A stretch of DNA of 64,000 nt from Escherichia phage slur16: the sequence record NC_028248.1; one strand, written 5' to 3'. Of this stretch, positions 30,776 to 47,189 are shown piece by piece. The position numbers and the translations under genes are program-made. Numbering within the stretch: the stretch's first letter is position 1; each line of letters begins with the position of its first letter. The notes below the pieces were generated by a model. That model was not told the DNA's origin, ran no database searches, and saw only the letters and a program-made list of their open reading frames with translations.

Positions 30776-33700
30776 TTAGTCGTGAGACTCGTTCCAAGGT
30801 CCTTGGAAACTAGAGTTAGAACGGCTTACCACAACAGTAGGACAGGATATTGCGACCCCTGTTACAGAAGACGTTGACCATGGTGTGTAGATTTCAACAA
30901 CAATATCTATGGTTTGTTCACCAAGACCCGTTATCCCTACCGCACACATGCCGTTGTTGTCGTTTCCGTACTTCTTACCTGCAAGGATTTGATGTCCGGC
31001 TATCCAAACGTTAAGCTGGGAGCTGGCAAGAGTACCATTCAGTTTAAAGAAGAATGTTACGTTCTTACCCTGACCTGAAACGTTATCTACGTATCTCCAC
31101 CTCCAACGGCAAACCCTTTGCTGGGAGTTATATACTGGAGCACAATCTCCGTAAGTCCTGTGTGCAACAATTGCACCTTCGAACTGGTTAGCGCGGATAA
31201 CAGAAGCTTCTACACGACCACGGAAGGTACCTCCGGTTGCATCTATGGTGCCTCTAAAGCTACCATTATTGGCATAAACATCCCCACGGAAGGTACCACT
31301 AGTGGCGTTAACTGCCCCTGTGAAGTTACCAGAACTGGCGTTGATGTTGCCTTTCACCCACACATCCATAAATTGGGCGTGCCCGTTCTTGTTAATATAC
31401 CAACCGTATTTATGGTACCCGTTGCCATCGTAGTTGTTTGACGAAATTTCTTGTGCAATCTTGGCAGAGGAGATCGTGCCATTCTCTATAAAAGCGTCTT
31501 TCAAGAACGCTTGGTTGTTCTTGATTGCGAAAGCAAGGGTTGCTGTTCCATTGCCAGGGTTGTATACCGCAAAATTGTTTGCGCTAACCATGAAGTAGGA
31601 TTGAACTTGGCCTCCAGACCCTTCCATCCCCAACTGAATACCTGCAACATATTTATTCCCTGCGGAGTCTACCTGTATTTTTGTGCCCCATTGAGCATTT
31701 ACTTTACCCTCTAAGTCGGTTACAGCCTTAGATGTTGTAGCTACTGCAGCCCTGATCTCAGACACATCCCCAACATCATCAATGATCTCCTGCTTAGCAA
31801 CAGCAAGTTCTTGACGAATAGCTGACGCTGTGCCGTTGATAAGGTCCACAGTGGCTTTATTGGTATCGGAAATTGTAGCATCCAGCGCTGTTTTTGTGGA
31901 GGTCAGTTTTCCATCCAAAGCATCAATCGCTTGCTTGTTGGTAGAAATCTCCCCACGTGCAGAAGTTATCTGCTCTGACAGTGCAGATGTTTTCTGATTC
32001 AACAAGTCAGTGGTGGCCTTGTTGGTATTGGCAATCAAGGTGTTGAGGTCAGTTTTTGCGGTAGTTATCTTGCCGTCAAGGGTGGTATAGTTTTTAGATA
32101 CCGTCGCGTTTGTCTGACTAATCTTTTGATCCAGAGTTTCAGATGTCCTGTTCAAAAGATCCACAGTGGCCTGGTTAGTGCTCAAGATGCTTGCGTCAAG
32201 TTCTGTTCTCTGAGTATTGATCTTACCATCCAGAGTTTTATCTCCGGCTAAATACCCGCTCTCAACTCCCTCTATCTGCTCTACCAGCTCACCTTTGGCG
32301 GCAACCAATTTCTCATCTAAAGCCTCTGTCTTTTTGTTCAGAAGATCAGTAGTTGCTTTATTGGTTGTCTCAATCAGGGATGCCAATCTTCCACTTTCAG
32401 TGTTCAGATCGTTGGTGAACTTGTTCTGTGCAGCAACAAGTTTCCTATCCAGCGCTGTGATATTGCCATTGACATCCTCAAACTTCTGAGTTGTCTCTGT
32501 AACTACCGCACCTATTCTGTCTCCAAGTTGCTGGAATGCCTCATCTACCCTACCATCCATGTACCTGTTAAGTTCTGTGACACGATTTTCAACCTCTTCA
32601 ATAGAGGAATCCAAAGTGCTCATCAACTCTTTATAAGTTTCTGTCTTTTTGAATTCAGCATCTATCTGAGGCATCAAATCCTCAATAGAGGTGTAGCAGC
32701 GTGCAGCGCATTCTACAAACTGAGAACTACCAAAAGCGTTTGTGGTTCGAATATACCAATAATAAACCTTATCGTTCTGCAGACCTTCAGATGTCCAAGT
32801 TGAACCAACACCCATACGGGTGGCGTTTGAAGTAACGGTTGCATCACTGGTGTCGGGCAACCTTGTCATACCGGATGTCCAAAAGTCATACTGGGTGCTA
32901 ACACTTGCTAAATCCCTACTATGCGGAATCAAGGTGATAGCAAAGTATCCTTGCTTAACCTCTACAGAAACCGGAGCTTCAGGTGCCTGAATGTTAAACT
33001 CACAATACGCTTCTGGAGATACACCACCTTTATAAGATGTTGCAACAACAGTGGCTGTGTAGGAACCTTTAGTCAGACCTTCAACACGGACAAACTGCTC
33101 AACTGTCTGTGCTGTCCAAACAATCTCTCCGTTCTTTCTTACCTGCACAATATTTTGAGCGTAAGTCCCAACGTTGTCCCAGGCCAAAACACCGTGAGTT
33201 ACTTCCCCAGCTTGGAGAACGGAGTATCTGAAGTTTTGCGGCTGAGCTACACCGGACGGGGATATCGGAATATCTACATCGCCGGAATCCGGAAGTTGCC
33301 CTGTGGCATCATTCCACTCTTTAGCATCTTGACGAAGTTTTACCTTGACACCGCCCTTTTTGGTGAACTCCCATTCAAGAACCCTCATTTCTTGGCCCAC
33401 GATACCAATACTTGGGAGGTCCATTGTAACATAACGGCCAGGCTTAAATTTAAAACCTCGCATATTGCAGGTGACTTCAATAATCCTGCCAGCTCTAGCA
33501 CGTCTTAGGAAGATTGCAGAAACACGCTGAGCTTGATAAGGACTGGTAACAAAGCGATAATCTATATCGATTATCTTTCTTTCTCCATCCTTCTCTATCC
33601 ACTCTGGGACAAACACTGATGGAAAATCTGTTTCAGAATACCCTTTGGTCGGGCTAGTGAATCTGCCAGTTATTGTGTTGGATCTTTTGTCAAATGAGGC

Positions 33701-34615
33701 TTCCGGATAGATCTTAACCTCACCACAGACACAGTCCTCACTAAGTGTCATTGTTGCTGGGCCATAGTATGCACCAACCAGCAAACCATACTTACCAGCA
33801 ACATAACTAAGATCTGCACCGCAAGCTTTCAGCATTTCTGCCATAATACTTGCTGGGGCCTCATCCATGTCAAACTCACCGTTAATGGTGTAACGGCGCT
33901 CACTGGTTCCGTCTGCGTTTTTTACCGCCTCGTCGCATATGTTGGCAGCCTCCTTGAAGGACTCCCAGTTGATGGTTTCGTCAGGACATTTAAGGTACGT
34001 TCTTAAATAGTCTAGGATCACCAAGGCAGCGTTATTGGTGTACACCTCTTTACTGATACGAGGATCATAGCATTTTTTACCAATCTTGACGAGTGTAACG
34101 TTTGGCAACCCAAAAGGAAACTTGTTAGGGTCAAACCTGAAGCTGGCACGTAGCCAACTGATCCCTCTACCTATCATGTCAGGTGACCATGATGGGCAGT
34201 GTGTACCCATGAAAGGATCAGATGTTTTTCTGTCGTTATGTAGCTCCCACGATACCAGATCTCCATACGAGGAAATAGGATTACCGTCGATAAGTATATC
34301 TTCTATACCTTCCAGAGGGTGATTGGCAAGAACAATAGCACAATGGAGGGTTCTGTCGCTATCCTGCTCCAAAAACGCAAGCAATCCAGATGTGCGTGTC
34401 TTTCCATACACTACAGAGCAAGGTGCAGCAGAAGATCTGAGAAGCTTTTGTCTATCTTGCTGACTTCTGTAAGATTTGTTGCCCTCAAAAATCTTATCCA
34501 AAGTTCTGGTGGTCACAGTGTTCAGGCTGTCAGCCAGAGCTGCCTTGGATGCGTTCCAGTCATAACTTGAAGATCTTGCAGAAGCAACGATGTTATCAAT
34601 CATTGCAATTGGCAT
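30776..34615 (-). CDS. tail fibre / host-specificity-type protein with coiled-coil tandem repeats
   Basis: 1279 aa; N-terminal region followed by a fibronectin-III-like segment, then tandem ~50-60-aa repeats (TNKATTDLLN / TNQATVDLLN / TNKATVDLIN), then a Gly-rich C-terminal domain. Confidence 0.6.
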   Translation of the reverse strand: MPIAMIDNIVASARSSSYDWNASKAALADSLNTVTTRTLDKIFEGNKSYRSQQDRQKLLRSSAAPCSVVYGKTRTSGLLAFLEQDSDRTLHCAIVLANHPLEGIEDILIDGNPISSYGDLVSWELHNDRKTSDPFMGTHCPSWSPDMIGRGISWLRASFRFDPNKFPFGLPNVTLVKIGKKCYDPRISKEVYTNNAALVILDYLRTYLKCPDETINWESFKEAANICDEAVKNADGTSERRYTINGEFDMDEAPASIMAEMLKACGADLSYVAGKYGLLVGAYYGPATMTLSEDCVCGEVKIYPEASFDKRSNTITGRFTSPTKGYSETDFPSVFVPEWIEKDGERKIIDIDYRFVTSPYQAQRVSAIFLRRARAGRIIEVTCNMRGFKFKPGRYVTMDLPSIGIVGQEMRVLEWEFTKKGGVKVKLRQDAKEWNDATGQLPDSGDVDIPISPSGVAQPQNFRYSVLQAGEVTHGVLAWDNVGTYAQNIVQVRKNGEIVWTAQTVEQFVRVEGLTKGSYTATVVATSYKGGVSPEAYCEFNIQAPEAPVSVEVKQGYFAITLIPHSRDLASVSTQYDFWTSGMTRLPDTSDATVTSNATRMGVGSTWTSEGLQNDKVYYWYIRTTNAFGSSQFVECAARCYTSIEDLMPQIDAEFKKTETYKELMSTLDSSIEEVENRVTELNRYMDGRVDEAFQQLGDRIGAVVTETTQKFEDVNGNITALDRKLVAAQNKFTNDLNTESGRLASLIETTNKATTDLLNKKTEALDEKLVAAKGELVEQIEGVESGYLAGDKTLDGKINTQRTELDASILSTNQATVDLLNRTSETLDQKISQTNATVSKNYTTLDGKITTAKTDLNTLIANTNKATTDLLNQKTSALSEQITSARGEISTNKQAIDALDGKLTSTKTALDATISDTNKATVDLINGTASAIRQELAVAKQEIIDDVGDVSEIRAAVATTSKAVTDLEGKVNAQWGTKIQVDSAGNKYVAGIQLGMEGSGGQVQSYFMVSANNFAVYNPGNGTATLAFAIKNNQAFLKDAFIENGTISSAKIAQEISSNNYDGNGYHKYGWYINKNGHAQFMDVWVKGNINASSGNFTGAVNATSGTFRGDVYANNGSFRGTIDATGGTFRGRVEASVIRANQFEGAIVAHRTYGDCAPVYNSQQRVCRWRWRYVDNVSGQGKNVTFFFKLNGTLASSQLNVWIAGHQILAGKKYGNDNNGMCAVGITGLGEQTIDIVVEIYTPWSTSSVTGVAISCPTVVVSRSNSSFQGPWNESHD
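31840..32360 (-). repeat. imperfect in-frame tandem repeats (~155-185 bp period) within the fibre gene
   Basis: Plus-strand motif cagtggc(c/t)tt(g/a)ttggt recurs near 31851, 32011, 32161 and 32341, matching the repeated peptide motif. Confidence 0.5.
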
Positions 34616-35052
34616 TAATACCTCCAGACATCAACAACGATAGAATCTTTCATGTCGAACATAAAGACCCCTTTATCACCTTTCGCCCAAATCTGGTTGT
34701 TCCAGAACACACCAGCGGTGAGCCCGTTCAGACCTTCGAAAATAACAATATCGCCACGCTGAACCTGTTTAGGAGTATCCAGTCGAGTCATAAAGAGATC
34801 AAAAATAGTAGGCAGGTGTGTAGTTTTGAAACGAAGCATGCACCATCTTTTGCTTTCCAACTCTGTTTTATACGTTCCTTCGAAGTTGGAAAGAAAATCT
34901 GTTCCGTATTGGGCATCAACACACTTAGCCGCAAAGGTGCAACAATCGTGGAATCCCCATTCAAAAGGTATGGTGGCCTCTTCGTCAAACACTTTCCACA
35001 ATCTTTCTTGCCAATCCACTAAACGAGGGTGTGTGCTCATTAAACCTCCCAA
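34615..35052 (-). CDS. tail-associated protein, possible NlpC/P60-like cysteine peptidase fold
   Basis: 145 aa; FHDCCTFAAKCV and RGDIVIFEG loosely resemble the Cys and downstream elements of NlpC/P60 domains; stop overlaps the start of the downstream fibre gene. Confidence 0.3.
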   Translation of the reverse strand: MGGLMSTHPRLVDWQERLWKVFDEEATIPFEWGFHDCCTFAAKCVDAQYGTDFLSNFEGTYKTELESKRWCMLRFKTTHLPTIFDLFMTRLDTPKQVQRGDIVIFEGLNGLTAGVFWNNQIWAKGDKGVFMFDMKDSIVVDVWRY

Positions 35053-35606
35053 ATGATCGGGCGGCTCGCCACCTGATCCACATATTTAAAAAATCTGTCA
35101 TTATCGTTTCTTGAGCTGTGGCTTTCCTCCGTGTACCGATAAGGAAAACCTCTTAACCAACTGTTGAAGATGGAAGAGATGGATATGGACAGAGCACTGT
35201 TCTCACCTGTCTGAATAGCCATATCTGTTATAAGGCCGTCAAACAAGCCATTAGTTGTAACAGGCAGACCATTCTCCATAGCGGTAATATACAACGTGGC
35301 ACGACAACCAGAATACTCCGTCTTCAGTAGATCACCAACATACTTAGGATCAAACCCGTTCAATGTTGCTACCACAGATCCGAAGTTGGTGGCATCTTTC
35401 TCAGACACAGCAGTTAATGTTGCTGATCCACCTATCCCTATAAAATGTTGCCCCTCAATTACTACAACACCAGTGCCTGAGCACACCCTGACAGTTCCTG
35501 TCGGTAGCTCCAGCTTTGCAGCAATTAAGATCTCAACACCATCAAGCTCCAGCTTTTCAAGAAATAAATTATCTAATGGCGCTCTGATCATCTTAGAAAT
35601 CCTCAA
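35040..35606 (-). CDS. putative tail/baseplate protein
   Basis: 188-aa ORF overlapping both neighbours. Confidence 0.4.
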   Translation of the reverse strand: MRISKMIRAPLDNLFLEKLELDGVEILIAAKLELPTGTVRVCSGTGVVVIEGQHFIGIGGSATLTAVSEKDATNFGSVVATLNGFDPKYVGDLLKTEYSGCRATLYITAMENGLPVTTNGLFDGLITDMAIQTGENSALSISISSIFNSWLRGFPYRYTEESHSSRNDNDRFFKYVDQVASRPIIWEV

Positions 35607-36183
35607 AGAAGTTGATAACTATATTATCACCTTTTTGCATAGCATCGACTTTTTGCTTAATTTTATAAATATCTCTGATATGAAACCTACCCTTCGGGGA
35701 TTGAGTTATTATCTTCATAGTGTCCCCTGCGGCAATAGGTTTTCTAAGTCTTGGAGATATGCTTATAACAGCAGACCCAACACCATCGCTACGCACTGGA
35801 GCTGTTACCACTTTCAATTCATCATTGACAGATATTTTATCCCCAGCTCTAGCTATATCCCTGTTCGGCTCCCAACCAACCGTCTTCAAAAAATCGTCGT
35901 TACCAGTAGGCCCAAGGGCGATTGGCTCATTAGCTGTAACTGAGTGACCGTAAGTTTTAATAAGAAAGATGTTTCCATCTTTATACACCTGATCAACAAA
36001 GCTCTTAAGCTCTAGCAACTGTGACTCGCTGATATTGGAAACCGTCAAAGTGCCTTTCCAGTTAGGTGTGGCATAGGTTACTTTTTGCGTTTTACCTGTA
36101 AACGGACTTTTAAACGTAACAATATCTGCCAGCAGCTCCAATCTAATATCTGGAAGGTATCTAGGCCTTTCCCATAAAAACAT
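35593..36183 (-). CDS. putative tail/baseplate protein
   Basis: 196-aa ORF with GGAGG RBS, first gene after a promoter candidate. Confidence 0.4.
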   Translation of the reverse strand: MFLWERPRYLPDIRLELLADIVTFKSPFTGKTQKVTYATPNWKGTLTVSNISESQLLELKSFVDQVYKDGNIFLIKTYGHSVTANEPIALGPTGNDDFLKTVGWEPNRDIARAGDKISVNDELKVVTAPVRSDGVGSAVISISPRLRKPIAAGDTMKIITQSPKGRFHIRDIYKIKQKVDAMQKGDNIVINFFEDF

Positions 36184-36245: not shown

Positions 36246-36275
36246 CAAACAAAAAGCCCCCGCCGAAGCGAGGGC
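36246..36275 (-). terminator. rho-independent terminator
   Basis: GC-rich hairpin GCCCCCGCCGAAGCGAGGGC with one mismatch, followed on the minus transcript by UUUUUGUUUG. Confidence 0.5.
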
Positions 36276-36282
36276 AGAACAG

Positions 36283-39200
36283 TTACTTCAGTTTCTCTTG
36301 CAATCCAGTAACAACCTCTGTCAATTTTTTAACCTGCTCCTCAAGGGCGGTTATTTTATCGTCCTGTTCCCTGCAAACCTGGACAAGCAAGCCTGTTACA
36401 GCTGCGTAGTCAACGTTATAGAACCTTTCCTCGGTCATCAGAGGAATACCGTCTTGAGTAGGACCTTCTATTTCCTTCCTTTTCACGAAAGATCCTACTG
36501 CCTCTGGCAATGCTTCCATAACCTCTTGAGCAATCACGCCTGCATAAGGCATACCATTCTCTTTCAAGGTGTAGGTATAGCCTTTCATCTTTCTAATTGC
36601 TTCCAGAGCGTTAGGTATGACCTCTATATTATCCTTCAGGTCTCTATCGGAACTTTGGCTAACAGTGGTACATTCTACCGTGCCGTTGACAGCAAAATAT
36701 CTTGATTTAGCCTCATCTGTCTTAGCTCCGCAGTGGAATACCCAGCTGGCGGCTGTTGAGTTATCACTTATCTGAAACTCAAGCACATTCTTCCTATCAG
36801 CGCCATTACCCCAATAGTACAACCTGCCTGTATTAGAAGGCATGTTCGAAGTGTTGGTAACATCAGCACCACCACCTGTGTGTATTGTGAACTCAGGTTC
36901 AAGATTGGACCCTTGAGTTTTTAAAGTGATACCCTTACCGCCAAGCTGCTGCCAATGGCCCCATGTGAAAACACCACCTATCGTTGTTCCATAACGCAGG
37001 AATTTTTCTCCAAGATATGTTGTATATTCCTGTACGCAACTCTCTGGAACGTTGGCATAGTTTCTATAGACAAGGAGAGTACCTGCCTGAGAGCATGGGT
37101 AGTTTCTATCAAGTGCGGCTTGAGCATTGGTCTCCTGATGATAAAAACCCTCTCTATCTCCTTTGTAGTCGTTAAGGTCATTAGTTCCCAACCCTTGACC
37201 ACGGTGCTGAATAACTTTGTTCCACGCTCTGTGGTTTCCCTGCTCTATGGAACGAGTGTACAGCTGGTCTAAACGACCTGCCATCTGGAAAGCGTAGTTT
37301 CCAGAAAAACCAACCGACAACCCTGCTACAACCATGGAACCTTCAGGTCCGTTGACGTTACCAGCCATTATTTTAGAAGGGTTGTTATTCCCGAACTGGT
37401 TGTTCCAGTCTGCACCTGTGTGGCATACAAAACCACCAGGAGCTGAGAAAGTGCCATCTTTGTTGAAGTTGTAGAATCTGTGAGCAGAACCTACAACATC
37501 ACGAACAATAACTTGACCAGCCTCTGGAGTAGATCTGAACTCTGCCTGACCTTTGAGACCAGCACCATTACCGCATTTAGAGGTAAACGTACCGTTAGTC
37601 AGATCCTCTGTCCCATCTGATGCACACTGGAAGCCTGCATTAGAGAATAACGCCTTTCTAGGACTGCCGTAGCACAAATAGTCAAGACCGTCTGCCCATA
37701 GCTCGACTTTTGGCATATTCATTTTGCTCATCACAGCATAGCGTTCAGCAGTGCCTATATAGTGCCACTGTGTGCCGCCACCAGTGTAGAACCCTGAAGT
37801 ACCTTTGAAGTCAACAATAGGTCTGGTATTGGTGTTATTATCTCCAAGAATAGCAAGATTCAAATCTGCTGACTGAAGAGGTGCAACGAACTTAACCCCA
37901 TCCTGATTGTCTGTTACAGCCCCAACCTGGTAATCTTGCTCTCTGGTAAACACTTCGACAACATTTCTACTTGCGTATATGCTGACAGGGAAAGCACGAG
38001 CCTCCACATAGAAAGCAACATACTCTTGTTTACCCCTTGTTGGAGCAATCATCCCAAGAAGTGCTTTTTCATTCTGGTAGAAATTTACTACCCCGTAGAA
38101 AGAGTCTCCCCTGTCCGTCCAGCCGCCAGTTCTATAGTGACACTGCAGGGTGGCACAGTTCATAGGGTCATTTCCAGATGAAGACCTGGTGACTATAGTA
38201 ATATCTGTACCTGTCGAAGGGGCGTAATACGGATCTGTTCTAACGATGATTGGGTAGTATTTCCCATCTTCCATCCCTGCGGTTCTTGGTAGTGTTAAGA
38301 AGTCTTTTACACCTGCTGCTATAGGAACTTTGAACAGATTCTGAGCATCTGCTAAAGTTGTAGCCCCGGTGCCACCTGCGGCTTGAGGTAGAGGTTCCCA
38401 CTTGGCCTTCCGGTTGTTATAAACACCCCATTCCAGAGTGCCGTTACCGGATTCGTCCATCCCACCATCCCAGATAACCATCTTGGCGGCTTTCTTGGAC
38501 CCCCAGAAGCCTCTTTCTGCTCCTGAACTACGAATCCACTCTCCAAGTCCCCAGTTTGTCAGCTGACCAGTAAGATCCCCAACCTGCATGTATTTAGGGC
38601 AGTCTAACACGCCGTCTTCGCGGAAACCTAAATATCTATGGGTTTCAGATCCTTTTGCACCTTTGTGCAGGTGGATTGTCAACCAAGCCTTATTGTCGTT
38701 TCTTACCTCAGAGTAGATCCTATATCCATGCTCAAGGACACCGTCAGCGCTGTATTTGTCCCCGTTAACAATACCTGATGCTGACTTAACATCAGCAGAA
38801 CTTTGAGACAGGTAAAGGTGCCCGAAGGTAGGGGAGTTTCTAGACCCGAGACCGATGTGCGATCTAAAGGTATCATCGTTACGAGGTCTGACCATTGGCT
38901 GCCATGCAGTCCACTGGTTTGTGTTGGCCTGATAGGTTCTCAAATACCAAACATCCACGTTAGAGAATGGATAGTATTCCTGACGACAACCTGTACCGCC
39001 GTTAGCATTGTTCTGCCAAACAATCAAGTGACCAGCACCAGAACCTGCAGGGTAACCATTTGCCTCAGTTGCATAAGCAGTCATCGGCTGGTAGTATACA
39101 CCATCCTGATTACCAGTCAAGTTATTGATATTGAAATTTGGCTCAAGGGCTGCACGTTGCTTATAGAAAGCCCCGATATTGATACGGACTCCAGCGGCAT

Positions 39201-40083
39201 CTCTGGCCCCCGTACCGCCTTGCTCTATAGCAAGAGGTTGCCACGAGGCTGTTTGTTGGTTCCACATGCCCCAACGGCCTGTTGCGTCAAGCTGCAAGTA
39301 CCCTGCCGTGTTTAAATCATCTCCAGCACGGATAACTGTTCTTGTTGGGTTGTTTGCCTCCAGGCGTTTAAATTCATCACGAAGTGCTATTCTTTTTGTT
39401 GTTGCTACACCGTTGGTTACTGCGATGGTATACATGGCTCCGGATGTAGCGCCACGGAAAATACCATCAACAGTTGTAGTATCACGACGAGATACCACAC
39501 CGTTCAGAAATTTTTCACCAGCTGCTACAGAAGGGTAGTTGGTGGTTCTTCCCTCTTCAATAACTGCAGGACCCACAAAGTTATCAAGGTGAATAACATC
39601 ACCTACAGTGTGCACCGTACCAAAATCTACACGCTGTGCAAGTGCTTTAGCATCGTTAGCTGTCTGAACAGTAACATCCATTACATCCTGGACAGACTGC
39701 CCTTCGGCTGTCATGATCATAGATGCGCCAATGGTAGATTCCAGCTCCTCCCTTAGGGACGGGTCAGTATATACCATCCATGCAGCGTCAGTAATCCCAC
39801 CATCGGAGTACGGTGAAGATAGTGCAGGAACAGTGTGTGGAAATTCGCCTTTCCAACGCAGGTAGAGATCTTCCTCTTCGAAATAGGCAAAATCCATTGG
39901 GCCGTTTAACTTACCACCTTCCTTAAAGGAGATTACATGAGAAACAGTCCCATCCACATGGACAACATCGCCAATTTTTACACGACGGGTCAGGTCTGGT
40001 TGTTGAACAACCAGGTAATCATCCTCTGTCACTGCGGTAGTGGCAGGAAGAGATTCAATTCTGACAACTTTAATATCAGCCAT
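36283..40083 (-). CDS. large tail fibre/tailspike protein (1266 aa)
   Basis: N-terminal ~90 aa (DYLVVQQPDLTRRVKIGDVVHV...FKEGGKL...DFAYFEE) homologous to the stand-alone 222-aa protein at 42718..43386; long Gly/Asn/Thr-rich body. Confidence 0.6.
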   Translation of the reverse strand: MADIKVVRIESLPATTAVTEDDYLVVQQPDLTRRVKIGDVVHVDGTVSHVISFKEGGKLNGPMDFAYFEEEDLYLRWKGEFPHTVPALSSPYSDGGITDAAWMVYTDPSLREELESTIGASMIMTAEGQSVQDVMDVTVQTANDAKALAQRVDFGTVHTVGDVIHLDNFVGPAVIEEGRTTNYPSVAAGEKFLNGVVSRRDTTTVDGIFRGATSGAMYTIAVTNGVATTKRIALRDEFKRLEANNPTRTVIRAGDDLNTAGYLQLDATGRWGMWNQQTASWQPLAIEQGGTGARDAAGVRINIGAFYKQRAALEPNFNINNLTGNQDGVYYQPMTAYATEANGYPAGSGAGHLIVWQNNANGGTGCRQEYYPFSNVDVWYLRTYQANTNQWTAWQPMVRPRNDDTFRSHIGLGSRNSPTFGHLYLSQSSADVKSASGIVNGDKYSADGVLEHGYRIYSEVRNDNKAWLTIHLHKGAKGSETHRYLGFREDGVLDCPKYMQVGDLTGQLTNWGLGEWIRSSGAERGFWGSKKAAKMVIWDGGMDESGNGTLEWGVYNNRKAKWEPLPQAAGGTGATTLADAQNLFKVPIAAGVKDFLTLPRTAGMEDGKYYPIIVRTDPYYAPSTGTDITIVTRSSSGNDPMNCATLQCHYRTGGWTDRGDSFYGVVNFYQNEKALLGMIAPTRGKQEYVAFYVEARAFPVSIYASRNVVEVFTREQDYQVGAVTDNQDGVKFVAPLQSADLNLAILGDNNTNTRPIVDFKGTSGFYTGGGTQWHYIGTAERYAVMSKMNMPKVELWADGLDYLCYGSPRKALFSNAGFQCASDGTEDLTNGTFTSKCGNGAGLKGQAEFRSTPEAGQVIVRDVVGSAHRFYNFNKDGTFSAPGGFVCHTGADWNNQFGNNNPSKIMAGNVNGPEGSMVVAGLSVGFSGNYAFQMAGRLDQLYTRSIEQGNHRAWNKVIQHRGQGLGTNDLNDYKGDREGFYHQETNAQAALDRNYPCSQAGTLLVYRNYANVPESCVQEYTTYLGEKFLRYGTTIGGVFTWGHWQQLGGKGITLKTQGSNLEPEFTIHTGGGADVTNTSNMPSNTGRLYYWGNGADRKNVLEFQISDNSTAASWVFHCGAKTDEAKSRYFAVNGTVECTTVSQSSDRDLKDNIEVIPNALEAIRKMKGYTYTLKENGMPYAGVIAQEVMEALPEAVGSFVKRKEIEGPTQDGIPLMTEERFYNVDYAAVTGLLVQVCREQDDKITALEEQVKKLTEVVTGLQEKLK

Positions 40084-40118
40084 TCTTTCTCCTGAAAGGG
40101 GGCAAACAGCCCCCTATG

Positions 40119-42716
40119 TTAAAGGTACAATCCACGGTATTGAGCATAAAGGCCCAGACCGCGAAGGATTTCGCCAGAGTGATAGCCCACCGGATCAGAA
40201 ACTGCCCAGCAGCCGTTTAAAACATTATCCCCATTGATGAAGTGGTGCTTTTGCAGTAGCTTCATACAGGCTTCTACAACAATGTCTATTTGAGGTATTG
40301 TCTCTGAATACCCGCACAGACCTAGCCAGCAGCAACCTGCAAGCCATTCACCTACCACCCACATCCTGTCCCCCCTGTCTTGATAAGAATATCCCCCAGA
40401 GGTGTTAAAGTCTGTAGGCAGATTTCCTGAATGAGATGACTGGAATCTGTTGAGGAACCATGCCCATTTCTGGCAGAACAGGAATAATCTTTCATCAACA
40501 GGTTCTTTATGTTTCTTGAGCTCATAGATTGTGCGGCACGCAGCAACAAAAGATCTTGACTGGAGCTTAGAGTTATCTACCATCTCCCACCAACCAGTCA
40601 GCCCTTCATTACCTCTCTGCCATACATAACGCGAGGCAACTGGACCCTCTGTCTTAAATGTATTATTATACCAGACTTGAGCGTCATACAGAAAGCCTAT
40701 TGTATTTGACAATCTATGGCGATCTATGTTTTCTGCACCCATGCAGTATACTGCTGGGTATTGCATGCCAGGGTAGGGCCAATTTGGCTTTTCCTCTAAG
40801 AGATAGTTTTCCTTATCTATCACCTTTCCGGCAGGGAACACACCTGGTGTGTGCCTGTATGCACCTTGCTTGTAGTTTCTGACATAGCAATCACCAACCT
40901 TAGCGGTTGATTCTGTCTTGCTTGCCATCCATACGCTAAACCATATTAGATAAGCATCCCTATCTGCAATATAGAACTGCGGCAGCGTGTTTACGCAGTA
41001 CAGATCAAACAAGCCATTACCTATCTGCCTGTCGCTTAGGCTGAAATCTACAGAGGTGAGCCCCTTAGGATTAGCAAAGAAAGGTTTAATCTCTTCTTCG
41101 GTGTGATGAGGTTGTGTCGGATCTAGTTTGAAATCTCCTAGAGTAAGAGTTTCTGTTATCCATTGTCCATTAGTGGCATATAGATCAGCATACCATAACC
41201 ACCTATCTTTGTCAAGAAATTTGACCCTTACCATCTCATCATCTGATCGATAAGTTACTGAGTTTAAAGAAATCTCTCTCCCAAAATTGAAAGTTACTTT
41301 ACCTCTTGCTATATTACAACGGGTGAAGTTGTCAGAGTGGTTGTAAATGTCGGTATCATACTGCATACTAACACTAGCGCCACCGCTTACGACAATGTTT
41401 TCCTCTTTAGGTAAGAGATACGGATTACCGTCTTTACCAACTACCTCTACGAAATCAGTAACCTTGGCAACTATTTCTGTTACCTCTGCCCCTCCAAAAG
41501 GAACCCCTATCCTGTACTGTTTTTTGTTATTGTTGCCATCATTAAGGATGAAATGTGGCTGGAACAGAACCCCTTCTCCTCCGAAATTCATAACAATTTC
41601 AGCATCTCTGCCTATTTTGTATGTAGTCCCTTTTTGAATTATTTCGCAAGGCTGGCGTGCGTTCATTCTAAAATTGATATACCCGTCACTGTCCCTGCTC
41701 ATGGCAGGAACTGTTCCTGCAACAAGGCAAGTACCATCTGTAAACGGTGCCTTAATCAACGTGGTCTTCCTAAACAGTTTGTCGTAGGCGTTTATATCAC
41801 TGAAATTAAGCAATTTGTTGTAAGACTGTTTAAACGCGGTGTAATACTTTTCCTCACCTGTCAAGGTGTAGAGTTGATAACAAGCGTCACACCACATTTC
41901 TTCCCCGTCCAACTCTGGGGCCTGATTATCTGCAACCACGTTTATAGGATTTACAATTACAGGGGATCCTGCAGGTATCACCGATCCGCCCTGCTCTTGA
42001 GGTAATCTTACACAATAGGTCACCTTGTGGCTGCCTGTAACACCCTTATCTTGTAATTGGATTGTGCCGAACTCTACAGACGTATGACCACTGTCGGCTA
42101 TGCTACCGTTAGCCCAATAGCGGTTACCATCCCATGCTATGTACCACTCAACCCACCAACTTAATCCGGATGTTGTCCAATCTGGGTTAGCATCTGTGCC
42201 ACCGTAAACATCAGAGTCTACAGTGTTTCTTCCTAACACACCGTTATACGCTTGGAATGCCTTGTCAAGGTATTCTCCCCATGTCGGAGATCCAGCTGGG
42301 ATTTTTCCTCTACCGTTGGTAAAAGACACCACCACATCTTTAAACCCACCATGTGATGGAACCCCATCTGTGGATAGGGGGTAGTGGGACAATCTTTGCA
42401 TTTTACTTTCTACTGCATATGCACCCAGAAGATGGCTATTGTAAGCTTCCCAAGCATCTTTTGCCCTACCCAGATAGAAATCGCTTTTCGATGCCCTGTA
42501 TGCTTCAATGTATCCCAGAATCAACACAGCTTGGGACTCATGCATTGCCCAATCATTATTTATCTTATTACCTGCCCACCCTGCAGCTATAAGACCATCA
42601 GGGTTTACTAGCTTATTTTGTGTAGGGGTGTTGGTAATACCTGTGTTGTTATCGAGGCACTTCCTGTGCCCCTCAATCATCTGAAATACGTTATCAATGT
42701 TATGTTGAATACGCAT
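40119..42716 (-). CDS. putative tailspike catalytic/receptor-binding protein
   Basis: 865 aa, Trp/Tyr-rich, glycosidase-like composition; starts 2 nt after the stop of the anchor-domain protein with its own AGGAG RBS. Confidence 0.45.
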   Translation of the reverse strand: MRIQHNIDNVFQMIEGHRKCLDNNTGITNTPTQNKLVNPDGLIAAGWAGNKINNDWAMHESQAVLILGYIEAYRASKSDFYLGRAKDAWEAYNSHLLGAYAVESKMQRLSHYPLSTDGVPSHGGFKDVVVSFTNGRGKIPAGSPTWGEYLDKAFQAYNGVLGRNTVDSDVYGGTDANPDWTTSGLSWWVEWYIAWDGNRYWANGSIADSGHTSVEFGTIQLQDKGVTGSHKVTYCVRLPQEQGGSVIPAGSPVIVNPINVVADNQAPELDGEEMWCDACYQLYTLTGEEKYYTAFKQSYNKLLNFSDINAYDKLFRKTTLIKAPFTDGTCLVAGTVPAMSRDSDGYINFRMNARQPCEIIQKGTTYKIGRDAEIVMNFGGEGVLFQPHFILNDGNNNKKQYRIGVPFGGAEVTEIVAKVTDFVEVVGKDGNPYLLPKEENIVVSGGASVSMQYDTDIYNHSDNFTRCNIARGKVTFNFGREISLNSVTYRSDDEMVRVKFLDKDRWLWYADLYATNGQWITETLTLGDFKLDPTQPHHTEEEIKPFFANPKGLTSVDFSLSDRQIGNGLFDLYCVNTLPQFYIADRDAYLIWFSVWMASKTESTAKVGDCYVRNYKQGAYRHTPGVFPAGKVIDKENYLLEEKPNWPYPGMQYPAVYCMGAENIDRHRLSNTIGFLYDAQVWYNNTFKTEGPVASRYVWQRGNEGLTGWWEMVDNSKLQSRSFVAACRTIYELKKHKEPVDERLFLFCQKWAWFLNRFQSSHSGNLPTDFNTSGGYSYQDRGDRMWVVGEWLAGCCWLGLCGYSETIPQIDIVVEACMKLLQKHHFINGDNVLNGCWAVSDPVGYHSGEILRGLGLYAQYRGLYL

Positions 42717-42717
42717 C

Positions 42718-43386
42718 TTAGATAGCTCCTGCGATAATCAGTGCCCCGTACCAAGTTAACCCGTTGTCGTAGGTTTCCAACTTGAAAATATCTGTTGCAC
42801 CAGCTGTAAATGTTAGGATAGGATCTCTTCCGTAGGACCATTTAACATTACCAGGCCAATAGACTTTGTTGCCGCCAGAGGTCTGAGTAATGCATACGGT
42901 TATAGTTCTCGCCACTCCTTCAAGACCTTCTGTTTGATTTTCAAAAGAGATTGTGGTATTTGAAGTTAGTCGAACCTTAAAGGTATCCGCAACTTCAAGA
43001 TCCATATCAAGCTGACCACCGATAGATCCGTAATCAACTATTCTGCCAGAAGAAGTTGCAGCAAGCTCACCAAAAACAGACCAGGCATTTGCAGACACAC
43101 CCCCAGCACCCTCTACAGTGGAGTCTGGGAGGATTATTTTAGGATAATCCCCGTTCCACGTGTAGTAGCGCTTAGTTTCTGGGTCATAAGCAAAGTCCTT
43201 CTTGCTCTTAAGATAACCACCCTCTGTGAAATAGACTATCTTAGTAATGCTAAGATCGTTGACAACATCGTCAATCTTAGCCTTTCTTGTCCCATCAGTC
43301 TGGTTGACAACCAAGAAGTCATCACTCAAGACTGTTTCTGCATCTTCAAGATCTGGAATTGGTATTGTAGGATAAGCTACAGCCAT
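42718..43386 (-). CDS. tail fibre N-terminal anchor-domain protein (stand-alone)
   Basis: 222 aa; motif DFLVVNQTDGTRKAKIDDVVN...FTEGGYLKSKKDFAYDPE parallels the N-terminus of the 1266-aa fibre. Confidence 0.5.
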   Translation of the reverse strand: MAVAYPTIPIPDLEDAETVLSDDFLVVNQTDGTRKAKIDDVVNDLSITKIVYFTEGGYLKSKKDFAYDPETKRYYTWNGDYPKIILPDSTVEGAGGVSANAWSVFGELAATSSGRIVDYGSIGGQLDMDLEVADTFKVRLTSNTTISFENQTEGLEGVARTITVCITQTSGGNKVYWPGNVKWSYGRDPILTFTAGATDIFKLETYDNGLTWYGALIIAGAI

Positions 43387-43395
43387 GATTTCTCC

Positions 43396-44112
43396 TTAGT
43401 TAACATCAATAGCACGACCAGACTGGTTGGCAATAGCCTCATCATTGGAGGTAGCAATAACACCAGAGTATTCGCGCTCATCTGGAGCAAGCGTCCAGGT
43501 ATTGCGGTTAATGGTTTGTTCTGCCTCAGTCATCAGCAGATCTTTATCCTGAGTCAACAGAGAGCCTACAGGGATCGGGTTTTCCATCTCAGGGCCAGCA
43601 TACTGGTTCCACCATGTGGCATCTCCTGTTCTAGGCAATCTGAAGTTGATCAGATAGTACAGTTTATTAGCCCACTTAATCCAACCCTCATCATCACAGA
43701 GAGAGGTTGTCCCAGAATCAGGCTGTGGGTAGGTGAACTGATCAAGACCTACGAAAGCCAGCCTTACAATCTCGTTCTCTTTGGTAACAACCTCGAAGAA
43801 CGCTTGGTATGTTCTCGATCTTCGGTCCATGGTAGACTGGAAGTTTATGATGTTTAGCACATCCGGCTCTTGTCTTGCCACTTCCATGATCTTGTTATCA
43901 AGAACAGTCTTCATGACCTTCTTGCTGAGAAAGTCCATATAAGGGAAGCCAAACAGCTCGTCAAAGTACCAGCTCCCCTTCCACGTATTAAACCTCATCC
44001 ACAAGCGCTGGCGCAGACTTACCTGGTTTGAATCTATCAACTCAAGACCTTTGTCTATCGCCAAATCGCCTGTCTGTGGGTCCATCAATATATCACTATA
44101 AAGCGTAGCCAT
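43396..44112 (-). CDS. putative baseplate protein
   Basis: 238-aa ORF immediately downstream of the spike gene. Confidence 0.4.
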   Translation of the reverse strand: MATLYSDILMDPQTGDLAIDKGLELIDSNQVSLRQRLWMRFNTWKGSWYFDELFGFPYMDFLSKKVMKTVLDNKIMEVARQEPDVLNIINFQSTMDRRSRTYQAFFEVVTKENEIVRLAFVGLDQFTYPQPDSGTTSLCDDEGWIKWANKLYYLINFRLPRTGDATWWNQYAGPEMENPIPVGSLLTQDKDLLMTEAEQTINRNTWTLAPDEREYSGVIATSNDEAIANQSGRAIDVN

Positions 44113-44124
44113 GAAAGCCCTCTA

Positions 44125-44802
44125 TTAGTGCGGTCCACTTGTCTCGCCATCAGGGCAAGAGTGGGTATGACCTTTATATTCTGCATAGAATGAATCCAAA
44201 TCCACGCCAGCAGCAGTTATAATTCTACCAGATGGGTCTATTGTAGCACCATTCATTCTGATATTCCCATCCACAGCAGCTCGCAAATTGGCAGCCCCGT
44301 TAGTGAAAGAAAACTCCCCGCTGCTGTCGCACCGTAATGTCCCACCAGGTGTTTGAAGCTCAAAATCGCCAGAAGGTGTCAGTTTAAAATAAACCCTATC
44401 ATTCCATAACTCTACGTTATCAGGATCGATCTGTAAGGCGTTTGAGTCTGAATGAACAGAGGTGATTGCCCACCCCGGAAACAGGCCGTGAGTTTGTTGA
44501 TCGTCGTTATTGTTTTCATTTCTCTCTGAAAACTGCAATCCTACAACATCTCCAGCCTTAATAGGGAGTGTTAACCTTGCCTTTCCGCTGTTTGCAGACA
44601 TCACCTGAATTGGAACGTCATAGATAAGAGGGTATCTCTCCACATCTCCGTCATCAAACGTAGTTTCAGCTATTGGCTGCACGGCTGCAGAAGGTATACT
44701 GTAGTCTACACTGACAACTCTGGCCCTGATACTGGTGTGGTAGTCCCTCATTATTTTTTCTATAAAAGATCTTACAGCAGCATCTTTCCTATTTATTGCC
44801 AT
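44125..44802 (-). CDS. baseplate central spike protein (gpV/gp5-like)
   Basis: 225 aa; C-terminal YKGHTHSCPDGETSGPH (HxH apex motif); position in the baseplate block. Confidence 0.5.
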   Translation of the reverse strand: MAINRKDAAVRSFIEKIMRDYHTSIRARVVSVDYSIPSAAVQPIAETTFDDGDVERYPLIYDVPIQVMSANSGKARLTLPIKAGDVVGLQFSERNENNNDDQQTHGLFPGWAITSVHSDSNALQIDPDNVELWNDRVYFKLTPSGDFELQTPGGTLRCDSSGEFSFTNGAANLRAAVDGNIRMNGATIDPSGRIITAAGVDLDSFYAEYKGHTHSCPDGETSGPH

Positions 44803-45806
44803 TATACCTCCTCAGTTTTGTCAACAACTCCACCCACTGTTTCCCCAAGGCCAAGCTCTGTAGTGTAATCACCACCTTCTATGGTGCCCTTATGATGCAC
44901 CGTGATCACCTTATAGAAGCCTGTATATTGCTTGCTTTTAAGATAAATAGTGGACTCTGGGAGGATAGCTCCGTTAAGGCATGTGGTTACAGTAAGGCCA
45001 ACATCCTCTCTCGGGTTTTTCTTTTTCTTTTTAGATGTCGAACCACCTTTGGCAGCAGCTTTAGCTTTTCGTTTTTTAGCAGGTTCTGGGTTTTTAGGGG
45101 TAGGAGATCCGTGCATCCCAGACTCTGCACTTATTTCAAACACAGAGTCTTTGAACCTTTTTCCAACCTTGGTCCAATACAAAGCCCCATCCTGAACGCT
45201 AAATGTTGAGTTGGTCAGCCTTGCAAACCTGCGGAGGTTCTCTGCAGTGTTTCCAGAGAAAGCCATAGAGTATTGCAAAGTCTGGTTTCCAAAACCAACA
45301 ACCCTACCTTTTGGCAAGTTCATATCCTTCAGTAGGTCATTAAGCACAGAGTTCAGAGGTGTACCTTTCTGATAAGATCTTGTGCTTTGGCACTTAATGA
45401 TGTTCTCAGTGCCATCCCCAAAGATGAACTTAGTTTTTCTGGTCGGACCTTCCCACCTGTCTTCAACAAACTCCACAGTTCCGGAGAATATCAACTGGTT
45501 CTCATTATCATAGCCAGCTTCAAACATAACTGCAAGGGCATCAGCCTGATGCATATCCAGATAGTTAACTGTATCGTCAGACAGGTTGTAAACTGTCACA
45601 TAACCTTTGTTTGGCTCTTTGGTATTGTCCTTTTGTATGTCAAACTCTATATTGGCAGCACCAGTGTCTGAGCTAACTTCATAAACTCCGGAATCACTCT
45701 CCCCTTTCTTTTCAACAGATTTTGGGATATTGGTTTTTGATTTACCGCCATGTTCTACAGGACGACCAAACAATAATCGCCATGTTCTACGTCTGTACTC
45801 TGCCAT
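44802..45806 (-). CDS. putative baseplate hub protein
   Basis: 334-aa ORF with a Lys-rich low-complexity segment, directly upstream of the spike gene. Confidence 0.35.
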   Translation of the reverse strand: MAEYRRRTWRLLFGRPVEHGGKSKTNIPKSVEKKGESDSGVYEVSSDTGAANIEFDIQKDNTKEPNKGYVTVYNLSDDTVNYLDMHQADALAVMFEAGYDNENQLIFSGTVEFVEDRWEGPTRKTKFIFGDGTENIIKCQSTRSYQKGTPLNSVLNDLLKDMNLPKGRVVGFGNQTLQYSMAFSGNTAENLRRFARLTNSTFSVQDGALYWTKVGKRFKDSVFEISAESGMHGSPTPKNPEPAKKRKAKAAAKGGSTSKKKKKNPREDVGLTVTTCLNGAILPESTIYLKSKQYTGFYKVITVHHKGTIEGGDYTTELGLGETVGGVVDKTEEV

Positions 45807-46186
45807 TATTCTAACCCTTGCTGTTCCTTGTAAAGATCAACCGGGGTGCCGTATACAAGTTGTAGCTCAGATCTCGCCCCAAGGTTATATCTTCCAACCC
45901 TGCCCCAATATTGATCGTCTTTAAACGACAGCGCCATCAATCTACCTTTCGGTAAATCGTCTCTGTAATGCAGTCCGTCTAAAATATCTTGACAAGCTGT
46001 TACTTTTCTGGTTACTAAAGGGCTGTCACCTACCGGACCAAGAGATAACCACCAGGACTCATCCCTCTCATTCCATTGCATACGCATTTCATACGTCTCA
46101 TTGTCTAAAACAACACGCATGGTTTGATCAGGAAAGCCGTCAATGTCCCACACAAAGGTGATTATGCACCAATCTTTAAGTTCCAT
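45806..46186 (-). CDS. putative tail protein
   Basis: 126-aa ORF, ATGA-type overlap with the downstream gene. Confidence 0.35.
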   Translation of the reverse strand: MELKDWCIITFVWDIDGFPDQTMRVVLDNETYEMRMQWNERDESWWLSLGPVGDSPLVTRKVTACQDILDGLHYRDDLPKGRLMALSFKDDQYWGRVGRYNLGARSELQLVYGTPVDLYKEQQGLE

Positions 46187-46198
46187 TACACGCTCCCC

Positions 46199-47149: not shown

Positions 47150-47176
47150 GATAAAATAAAGGGGGCCGGAGCCCCC
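47150..47176 (-). terminator. rho-independent terminator
   Basis: GGGGGC-cgga-GCCCCC hairpin, followed on the minus transcript by UUUAUUUUAU; 14 nt downstream of the tape measure stop. Confidence 0.6.
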
Positions 47177-47189
47177 TATGTGCTGTTTA

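Follow-up and report, generated by a model that had tools for sequence, protein, structure and literature searches.

The window analysed is the whole 64,000-nucleotide stretch of the genome of Escherichia phage slur16 (NC_028248.1), an rV5-like Vequintavirus which is 100% identical to phage slur12 across the region of interest. The three ORFs of 222, 865 and 1266 aa that had been described at this locus are present on the minus strand and correspond to rV5 gp43, gp42 and gp41 respectively (Table 1). They are the last genes of an eight-gene unit that lies between two terminator-like hairpins, one just downstream of the 1266-aa gene, which was graded strong and intrinsic-terminator-like, and one at 47160-47177. 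A GC-rich hairpin, found between the 865-aa and 1266-aa genes, was not among the terminator-like sites detected by a scan of the stretch and is a possible attenuator or RNA-stability element. All three proteins have been described before, and the N-terminus shared by two of them already carries an annotation.

The 865-aa gene was previously said to start 2 nt after the 222-aa gene, in another frame and with its own ribosome binding site. The change of frame and the binding site were borne out, as AGGAG is located 9 nt 5' of the 865-aa ATG, inside the end of the 222-aa gene. The spacer, however, is one base rather than two because the junction reads TAA-G-ATG, with the stop codon at 42718-42720 and the start codon at 42714-42716. 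Tight or overlapping stop and start codons were also seen in the 10 other cassettes of this gene pair for which the junctions were read. Judged from the sequence, the 222-aa and 865-aa genes are clearly arranged for translational coupling.

Table 1. Positions of genes, protein parts and hairpins at the locus, numbered as in the window
Feature	Position	Strand	Basis or remarks
Terminator-like hairpin	36256..36275	-	just 3' of the 1266-aa gene; 8 pairs, 7 GC, then T-run
1266-aa lateral tail fibre (rV5 gp41)	36283..40083	-	PF18668, PF13884, phrog_6578
Peptidase_S74 intramolecular chaperone, 1266-aa fibre aa 1145-1196	36496..36651	-	PF13884
Anchor of 1266-aa fibre, aa 1-107	39763..40083	-	same N-terminal module as 222-aa protein
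GC-rich hairpin GGGGGC-TGTTT-GCCCCC, then TTT	40098..40114	-	between 865-aa and 1266-aa genes; sequence reading
865-aa protein (rV5 gp42)	40119..42716	-	predicted (alpha/alpha)6 glycoside-hydrolase-like barrel, beta-sandwich domains interrupting; no anchor
C-terminal part of (alpha/alpha)6 barrel, aa 654-864	40125..40757	-	
Inserted beta-sandwich domains, CBM-like, aa 329-613	40878..41732	-	model; Foldseek; phrog_23426
Barrel hairpin 2, aa 269-305	41802..41912	-	nearly invariant D270, E272; motif NA.DAE.WF
First inserted beta domain, aa ~100-260	41937..42419	-	model secondary structure
Barrel hairpin 1, aa 59-95	42432..42542	-	nearly invariant E60, Q62; motif TTEGQS; model helices
N-terminal segment of 865-aa protein, aa 1-58	42543..42716	-	helix 2-23, then lower-confidence stretch
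222-aa protein (rV5 gp43)	42718..43386	-	
C-terminal domain (CTD) of 222-aa protein, aa ~118-222	42721..43035	-	conserved ~105-residue domain; proposed docking for 865-aa protein
Shine-Dalgarno GCAGGAG of 865-aa gene	42726..42732	-	within last codons of 222-aa gene; sequence reading
Anchor module of 222-aa protein, aa 1-107	43066..43386	-	PF18668 and homology to 1266-aa fibre

Two domains in the 222-aa protein

The N-terminal homology between the 222-aa protein and the 1266-aa fibre, which the preliminary description had proposed, was confirmed by BLASTP (38% identity over 99 residues, 8-105 against 7-105, E 3e-18). Tail_spike_N (PF18668) was recognised in both proteins, at 41.0 bits in the former (aa 51-105) and 40.9 bits in the latter (aa 46-103), where the Pfam gathering cut-off is 25 bits. 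Residues 1-107 of the 222-aa protein consist of a short N-terminal motif followed by this domain, and when every ORF of 80 aa or more from the window was scanned with phmmer, the module was found in these two proteins only. Its sequence matches in the PDB are TSP3 and TSP4 of phage CBA120 and related spikes. A paralogous anchor pair is also carried by PVP-SE1 (g51/g49, E 1e-32). In the 1266-aa fibre a variable distal body lies between the anchor and the C-terminal Peptidase_S74 chaperone, which scored 55.4 bits against a curated cut-off of 22.

The homology to the fibre does not, however, extend beyond the first ~107 residues; the remainder, from ~118 to 222, is another conserved domain, which the 1266-aa fibre lacks. 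This CTD is common to PHROGs 7760, 9017, 32568, 22179, 24774, 27998, 34656 and 19200, has 13 invariant columns in its alignment (A3), and occurs in proteins which are all short (86-270 aa). As a family it had no PDB or Pfam match. It ends in a single Asp-box-like motif, TYDNGLTW, and matches to BNR were weak, being obtained for three of nine CTDs with a best E of 0.052. A sialidase of the BNR type would be recognised by several Asp-box repeats, a beta-propeller and a family match, whereas the CTD has the one motif and the 222-aa protein of the window had no sialidase family match in Pfam; in the BASEL collection the pair is annotated as 'sialidase domain protein' and 'lateral tail fiber protein with glycosidase domains'. 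An anchor is only one half of the 222-aa protein; it is the CTD whose link to the large protein is constant.

Predicted fold of the 865-aa protein

Composition, from which this protein had been called glycosidase-like, gives no basis for the name, but a glycosidase-type fold is supported by structure prediction: the model contains a complete (alpha/alpha)6 six-hairpin glycosidase fold that matches known members. The closest folds belong to clan GH-M, namely GH8 (e.g. E. coli BcsZ) and GH48 (e.g. predicted in Erwinia phage S6 gp094). E60, D270 and E272 are nearly invariant and are placed at helix starts in the model, with a resemblance to BcsZ at the level of motifs. Hairpin 1 resembles 'TTSEGQS' of BcsZ, a stretch that no alignment tool paired with it, and the best local alignments of hairpin 2 were to 'SASDGDVWM' of BcsZ and 'NAPDAE' of S6 gp094, neither of them significant. 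No Pfam GH family was reached by the 865-aa protein; in particular, no match to Glyco_hydro_8 or Glyco_hydro_48 of clan GH-M was obtained up to E 10 with six family members, and single-target comparisons yielded E 0.37 with BcsZ (hmmsearch) and E 0.016 at a probability of 2.9% with S6 gp094 (hhalign). Since no Pfam GH family is reached and the GH8 and GH48 motif resemblances are either unaligned or non-significant, catalysis by this protein is only putative. A beta-linked glycan such as cellulose may be guessed as the substrate from the closest folds of the model.

The inserted beta-sandwich domains (aa 329-613) matched Vip3 C-terminal domains, CBM51 and CIA30-like folds in Foldseek, and residues 459-579 also form the distal domain of a separate fibre of phage phiEa104 (gp71 C-terminus, 30% identity, E 1e-13). 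The N-terminal segment has the family consensus A..L..GH..FL.RNTG.T.D...D.YV.N..GVL.NNRHF and a pLDDT of 64-89 in the monomer model, and is a candidate contact region for the adaptor proposed below.

Distribution and exchange of the gene pair

Out of 50,697 phage records, the CTD was detected by tblastn in 522 and the large protein in 523, with near-identical taxon breakdowns that span contractile, long non-contractile and short-tailed phages. In each of the 12 loci inspected, the CTD gene directly precedes that of the large protein; the loci are those of WalterGehring, a near-identical relative of the window, and of 11 other phages and prophages (phAPEC8, the phi92-like JohannJBalmer, PVP-SE1, ZCSE2, the jumbo phage SPFM22, phiEa104, Vibrio D504, siphovirus PSA28, podoviruses Kaonashi and GAP52, and a Pseudomonas lini prophage). 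When the cassettes were compared in 55 pairs, both the CTD and the large protein were homologous in every pair, whereas N-terminal similarity of the small protein was confined to related phages. Identity of the large protein was correlated with similarity of the CTD (rho 0.39, p 0.003) but not with that of the N-terminus (rho 0.04). The small-protein N-terminus is a T7 fibre N-domain (PF03906) in the T7-like podovirus Kaonashi, a siphoviral fibre N-terminus in PSA28, and paralogous to that of the neighbouring fibre in PVP-SE1 and phiEa104. The small protein always begins with the fibre anchor of the phage in which it resides. At the level of gene comparison, this pattern demonstrates two genes that move between unrelated phages as one cassette, in which only the anchor module is exchanged, to suit each tail type.

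No recognisable anchor was found among 92 representatives of the large protein, all of which start with the conserved N-terminal segment, and unexplained extensions were present in only four of the 92. In a few metagenomic homologues the N-terminal extensions are roughly 270-380 residues long and have only an Asp-box-like motif in common with the CTD (E 2e-4 at best for four sequences; hhalign probability 3.6%). Identity within the large-protein family is only 23-35%; this glycosidase-type family, so far uncharacterised, has members in over 500 phage genomes. Within the genus the cassette hardly varies, while the 1266-aa fibre is much more variable.

An adaptor-cargo interpretation and its alternatives

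The interpretation favoured here, with a probability of about 0.6, is that gp43 is an adaptor which holds gp42 on the tail, and that the complex binds and probably cleaves a surface polysaccharide. Residues 1-107 of gp43 would be the tail or baseplate anchor and, as this is common to the neighbouring 1266-aa fibre, both proteins probably fit a socket of one kind. Residues ~118-222 would hold the product of the next gene, gp42, which has no anchor of its own and is predicted to be an (alpha/alpha)6 glycoside-hydrolase-type protein with carbohydrate-binding-like beta-sandwiches. On the virion the complex would most likely bind, and probably cleave, a conserved surface polysaccharide at adsorption; the target is probably a conserved glycan, given how little the cassette varies within the genus, and the contrast with the variable 1266-aa fibre fits this. 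Two features expected of such a system were found, a virion-binding N-terminal domain by homology (Tail_spike_N, T7 fibre N-domain and other fibre N-termini) and a cargo without its own virion anchor. The two-component tailspike of the preliminary description, an anchor plus an enzyme, is supported by gene pairing, predicted fold and the detection of gp41, gp42 and gp43 in rV5 virions by mass spectrometry (PMC3606486), but its bare anchor would be replaced by an adaptor.

Podoviral counterparts are the gp37 adaptor and tailspikes of K1-5, K1E and SP6 and the Klebsiella KP32-type anchor/branch receptor-binding proteins (Latka et al. 2019, PMC6872550), in which a small protein with a tail-binding N-terminus (T7-gp17-type or other) bears a separately encoded, enzymatic receptor-binding protein that is itself anchorless; the Kaonashi cassette even uses the T7 fibre N-domain. 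Unlike in those systems, the proposed docking domain belongs to a distinct family of ~105 residues, the putative cargo is predicted to be an (alpha/alpha)6 barrel and not a trimeric beta-helix, and one cassette serves myo-, sipho- and podoviruses. Tail_spike_N is also N-terminal in the branched tailspikes of CBA120 (TSP1-4) and G7C (gp66/gp63.1), but there the enzymes themselves bear N-terminal domains and bind each other, whereas the 865-aa protein has none and, on the adaptor reading, would depend on a dedicated adaptor.

Several points count against adaptor and cargo, including the missing Pfam GH match of gp42 described above. Another concerns stoichiometry, as anchors of this type are trimeric, whereas enzymes with an (alpha/alpha)6 barrel usually occur as monomers. 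Two proteins that merely cooperate would also be expected to be adjacent and co-inherited. Finally, the pair has direct homologues in phi92, gp140 and gp141, whose genes occupy the corresponding genomic position, directly following that of the sheath initiator, although gp140 contains no more than the first ~45 anchor residues; neither gp140 nor gp141 was assigned any density in the 2026 cryo-EM structure, in which fibre II and much of fibre I were left unassigned (PMC13450770). A review table lists gp141 as a glycosidase (PMC5380687), and treatment of gp140 and gp141 as a pair was not found in the literature examined on the 'Swiss army knife' baseplates of the phi92 type, which are shared by phi92, rV5 and PVP-SE1 (Schwarzer et al. 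2012; Maffei et al. 2021, PMC8594841; Chen et al. 2026, PMC13450770).

The 222-aa protein could instead be a short receptor-binding fibre with the CTD as its knob, with the 865-aa protein attached through another partner and a shared target keeping the genes together. The CTD is compact and lies at the C-terminus of a fibre-type protein, which is normally the distal end, and phi92 gp140 has been listed as a fibre-like candidate from AF3 models. This is nevertheless considered unlikely, as no anchor can be recognised on the large protein whatever the tail type, the genes are tightly coupled, and only the N-terminus of the small protein is exchanged among myo-, sipho- and podoviruses, so that independent attachment would have to be re-invented for each tail type. 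If the adaptor is accepted, its cargo may still be a non-catalytic, lectin-like binder on a glycosidase scaffold; this appears distinctly improbable given that acidic residues at typical active-site positions of the barrel are nearly invariant despite the low family identity, and that hydrolases are the best fold matches of the model. A role for the small protein as an assembly chaperone, with no lasting structural partnership, would agree with the coupling of the genes and with the frequency of chaperones among small genes beside fibre genes, but is very improbable: gp43 was detected in virions (PMC3606486), a virion-anchor domain that varies with tail type would be superfluous in a chaperone, and most fibre chaperones are encoded downstream of their partners, not upstream. 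A recent split of one former tailspike gene into the 222-aa and 865-aa ORFs, also suggested previously, agrees with the one-base spacer and the metagenomic extensions but is rejected, as the split arrangement is ancient and universal (12/12 loci, with about 520 records from very distant phages implying the same), those extensions share only the one motif with the CTD, whose proteins are all short, and no clear fused form was found.

The rV5-like and phi92-like phages are among the coliphages with the broadest host ranges, and even the 2026 phi92 structure does not match every tail fibre with a gene product. The gp43/gp42 pair (phi92 gp140/gp141), as an adaptor-cargo unit, would be a concrete candidate for the unassigned baseplate density. 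Much more tentatively, and in our view doubtful as a whole, the CTD and the (alpha/alpha)6 protein may be a universal plug-in receptor-binding unit, pairing a single docking domain with an enzyme from a new clan-GH-M-like hydrolase family, which all three tail morphotypes acquire by swapping the anchor, whose target is a glycan conserved across gamma-proteobacteria (e.g. cellulose or a related beta-glycan), and which makes up some of the fibre density without an assignment (fibre II or the fibre I arm) in phi92- and rV5-type baseplates. A conserved-glycan target would bear on host-range prediction, and the proposed docking domain might allow native or other cargo to be grafted onto different phage tails.

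The locus and its common N-terminal anchor

All genes of this region are on the minus strand, and they are given in the order of transcription in the table below. The correspondence of the last three genes of the unit to rV5 gp43, gp42 and gp41 was taken from the PVP-SE1 annotation. Two strong terminator-like hairpins bound this unit of eight genes. Over 36283-43386 the sequence equals that of Escherichia phage slur12 (100% identity), and approximately 120 rV5-like Vequintavirus genomes match it at 91-99.7% identity. Around 23 GenBank 'Campylobacter phage' records, MG0656xx (e.g. MG065676.1, MG065650.1 and MG065646.1; stated host C. jejuni), are 96-100% identical here to rV5-like or phAPEC8-like phages of E. 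coli, and their hosts were probably mis-assigned or the phages carried over.

Features of the region, with positions in the window
Feature	Position	Strand	Remark
Tape measure	47190-49526	-	
Terminator-like hairpin	47160-47177		strong; boundary of the eight-gene unit
Tube initiator, plug, hub, central spike, sheath initiator	43396-47110	-	
222-aa gene	42718-43386	-	rV5 gp43
Asp-box-like motif	42721-42760		C-terminus of the 222-aa protein, which contains TYDNGLTW
Shine-Dalgarno of the 865-aa gene	42726-42732		GCAGGAG
865-aa gene	40119-42716	-	rV5 gp42
Beta-sandwich, aa 459-579	40980-41342		within the 865-aa gene
GC-rich hairpin	40098-40114	-	GGGGGC-TGTTT-GCCCCC + TTT
1266-aa gene	36283-40083	-	rV5 gp41
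Terminator-like hairpin	36256-36275		strong; other boundary of the unit
Dit-like protein	35593-36183	-	
phrog_2048 tail protein	35040-35606	-	
DUF6950	34615-35052	-	
Lambda-J-like protein, 1279 aa	30776-34615	-	Phage_Tail_Tip and Ig_J domains

The GC-rich hairpin is located between the stop codon of the 865-aa gene and the Shine-Dalgarno sequence of the 1266-aa gene; the terminator scan calls for a longer T tail than it has, and the hairpin could influence read-through towards the fibre gene. Siphovirus-type tail-tip genes (30776-36183) are present within the baseplate cluster of this contractile-tail phage.

The preliminary description held the 222-aa protein to be homologous to the N-terminus of the 1266-aa fibre, and the alignment bears this out, with residues 8-105 of the former matching residues 7-105 of the latter at 38% identity (E 3e-18) and both proteins passing Pfam Tail_spike_N. 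An ORF scan of the window detected the module in no further ORF. This common N-terminus was already known before our analysis. Gene 49 in the PVP-SE1 record is annotated as a 'putative fusion protein' with N-terminal similarity to rV5 gp43, and HHpred has been reported to match the N-terminus of gp43 with that of the P22 tailspike (PMC3606486). At its C-terminal end the 1266-aa fibre has a Peptidase_S74 chaperone domain. Some of its distal region is similar to fibres of siphoviruses, T5-like ones among them, and Seunavirus 'colanic acid degradation' proteins also begin with its N-terminal 134 residues.

A mobile two-gene cassette

The 222-aa protein consists of two modules, the anchor and a C-terminal conserved domain (CTD, aa ~118-222). 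In PHROG scans the latter matched the C-terminal ends of eight small 'tail fiber' families with differing N-termini, all CTD proteins are short (86-270 aa), and the CTD profile had no match in a PDB sequence search. The domain ends in a single Asp-box-like motif (family form S/T-x-D-x-G-x-T-W), which is probably the origin of the database label 'sialidase domain protein'. No sign of a sialidase beyond this motif was found, and the label was rejected as a function of the 222-aa protein as it is based on one Asp-box only.

When 50,697 phage records were searched with tblastn, the CTD was detected in 522 and the 865-aa protein in 523, with almost identical taxon breakdowns (by genus in the record name, CTD and 865-aa protein respectively: Escherichia, 238 and 241; Salmonella, 101 and 101; Vibrio, 58 and 62; Erwinia, 33 and 33; Cronobacter, 12 and 12). 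The CTD-bearing gene is directly upstream of the large-protein gene in every locus inspected (12/12), and the stop and start codons usually overlap or abut. These loci are from WalterGehring (a near-identical relative of the window), phAPEC8, the phi92-like JohannJBalmer, PVP-SE1, the 54-kb myovirus ZCSE2, the jumbo phage SPFM22, phiEa104 (Ounavirinae), a 157-kb Vibrio phage, the siphovirus PSA28 (where the cassette comes after gpJ), the T7-like podovirus Kaonashi, the 7-11-like podovirus GAP52 and a Pseudomonas lini prophage.

In the window, the two genes are in different frames and the second has a separate ribosome-binding site, as first described, but the spacer is one base rather than 2 nt (TAA-G-ATG, with AGGAG in the final codons of the gene before it). 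In rV5-, PVP-SE1-, phAPEC8- and phi92-like phages (the window and loci L002, L010 and L011), the codons for Ala-Gly-Ala/Val at the end of the small gene also make up the Shine-Dalgarno sequence GCAGGAG of the large gene, so that the stretch is constrained both as protein and as translation signal.

Every one of 55 cassette pairs has homologous CTDs (32-82% identity) and homologous large proteins (29-83% identity), whereas N-terminal similarity of the small proteins is limited to related phages. Identity of the large proteins is correlated with similarity of the CTDs (rho 0.39, p 0.003) but not with that of the N-terminal parts (rho 0.04), which places the recombination boundary inside the small gene and not between the genes. 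The N-terminal part is always the fibre anchor of the resident phage: it is the T7 fibre N-domain (Pfam PF03906) in Kaonashi, in PSA28 it is of the siphoviral fibre type, and in PVP-SE1 (E 1e-32), phiEa104 (E 3e-12) and the window it is paralogous to the N-terminus of the adjacent fibre.

We favour an adaptor-cargo model, to which we assign a probability of roughly 0.6. The N-terminal module of gp43, homologous to fibre modules of the Tail_spike_N type here and of the T7 type in Kaonashi, would belong to an adaptor that is a trimer and holds gp42 by its CTD, and gp42 is predicted to be an (alpha/alpha)6 protein of the glycosidase type that carries binding modules. The pair is a mobile cassette, fitted to any tail by anchor exchange, and on the virion it would bind, and probably cut, a conserved surface polysaccharide. 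The adjacency and joint inheritance could also be read as those of independent but cooperating parts, which we consider unlikely, although it is the strongest of the alternatives.

Predicted fold of the 865-aa protein

The first structure model, built from 6 sequences, was poor (pLDDT 64) and was replaced by a confident one from 48 family members (pLDDT 89, pTM 0.84). This predicts an (alpha/alpha)6 barrel made of helices 59-95, 269-305 and 654-864. Beta domains interrupt the barrel (~100-260 and 329-613), and in the model these have a likeness to carbohydrate-binding modules (CBMs). The fold assignment is solid for a prediction, and the names listed with it are GH105, YteR, cellobiose 2-epimerase, GH76 and GH88. 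Foldseek against the PDB gave low-TM multi-domain matches, which indicate CBM-like domains and alpha/alpha toroids and little more. The protein reached no Pfam or NCBIfam family and, searched alone, had no match in the PDB sequence search; its profile gave only weak hairpin matches there, to cellobiose 2-epimerase and GH76.

Residues E60, D270 and E272 are nearly invariant and are placed at helix starts, based on family conservation and the model. By eye only, the E60 motif resembles 'TTSEGQS' of BcsZ (GH8); that of D270/E272 resembles 'SDGD' of BcsZ and 'NAPDAE' of Erwinia phage S6 gp094 (GH48), with alignments that are not significant. Membership of GH8 or GH48 by sequence was rejected, as the family profile gave no significant match to BcsZ or S6 gp094. 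A cargo that only binds appears less likely again than independent parts.

The beta-sandwich at aa 459-579 is homologous to the C-terminal domain of phiEa104 gp71 (30% identity, E 1e-13), a separate 502-aa fibre (locus L006, 2991-4499) whose N-terminus is paralogous to the phiEa104 adaptor gp72. As it recurs as the distal domain of gp71, this domain also moves on its own.

Virion presence, alternatives and known systems

As to whether the 865-aa protein is absent from virions, one of the refuting conditions named in the preliminary description, gp42 was detected in rV5 virions by mass spectrometry together with gp41 and gp43 (PMC3606486). A chaperone in place of an adaptor is very improbable. 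Within the genus the cassette hardly varies: the small protein is at 99% identity or more in 95 records and the large protein in 85. Variation is far greater in the 1266-aa fibre, which shares the anchor: only 7 records reach 99% and 55 are at 80-90%. The pattern is consistent with a cassette whose target is conserved and a fibre that determines host range. The N4-glycan-receptor-binding fibre known in these phages is another protein, of the phi92 gp142 type.

Only 92 relatives of the 865-aa protein came out of an exhaustive search among 1.84 billion representative proteins. The same conserved N-terminal segment begins all close and distant relatives, with no anchor, and four of the 92 (metagenomic P0028, P0035, P0040 and P0067) have unexplained N-terminal extensions of roughly 270-380 residues. 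These four were not accepted as fused adaptor-enzyme proteins because their likeness to the CTD is limited to the Asp-box-like motif. The split state of the cassette is ancient and general. The two-component reading of the preliminary description is well supported indirectly and sharpened, and its alternative, a recently split gene, is rejected and scarcely credible, given the anchorless large protein and the uniformly short CTD proteins. One metagenomic protein, P0070 (293 aa), has a large-protein homologue in its first ~195 residues followed by a CTD, which reverses the normal order; either a rearrangement of the cassette or a chimera of the assembly may account for it.

In its proposed logic the cassette follows established adaptor-tailspike systems, namely K1-5/SP6 gp37, anchor and branch of the KP32 type, G7C gp66/gp63.1 and the CBA120 tailspike complex. 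Unlike these, the proposed docking domain has no Pfam or PDB match, the predicted cargo is an (alpha/alpha)6 barrel and not a beta-helix, and one cassette serves all three tail morphotypes. A literature search on the cassette or on six-hairpin tail proteins found nothing specific. The phi92 counterparts gp140 and gp141 were not found described as a unit, and Schwarzer et al. 2012, outside this search, may mention some of this; in the 2026 phi92 structure, fibre II and the greater part of fibre I are without assignment, and gp141 is not considered. As the cassette genes themselves are already known and annotated, what the analysis adds is a variation on an established principle.

In ZCSE2, GAP52 and the Pseudomonas lini prophage (loci L003, L009 and L013), the cassette comes after head-morphogenesis and not baseplate genes, and the attachment site may therefore be other than the baseplate in some lineages.
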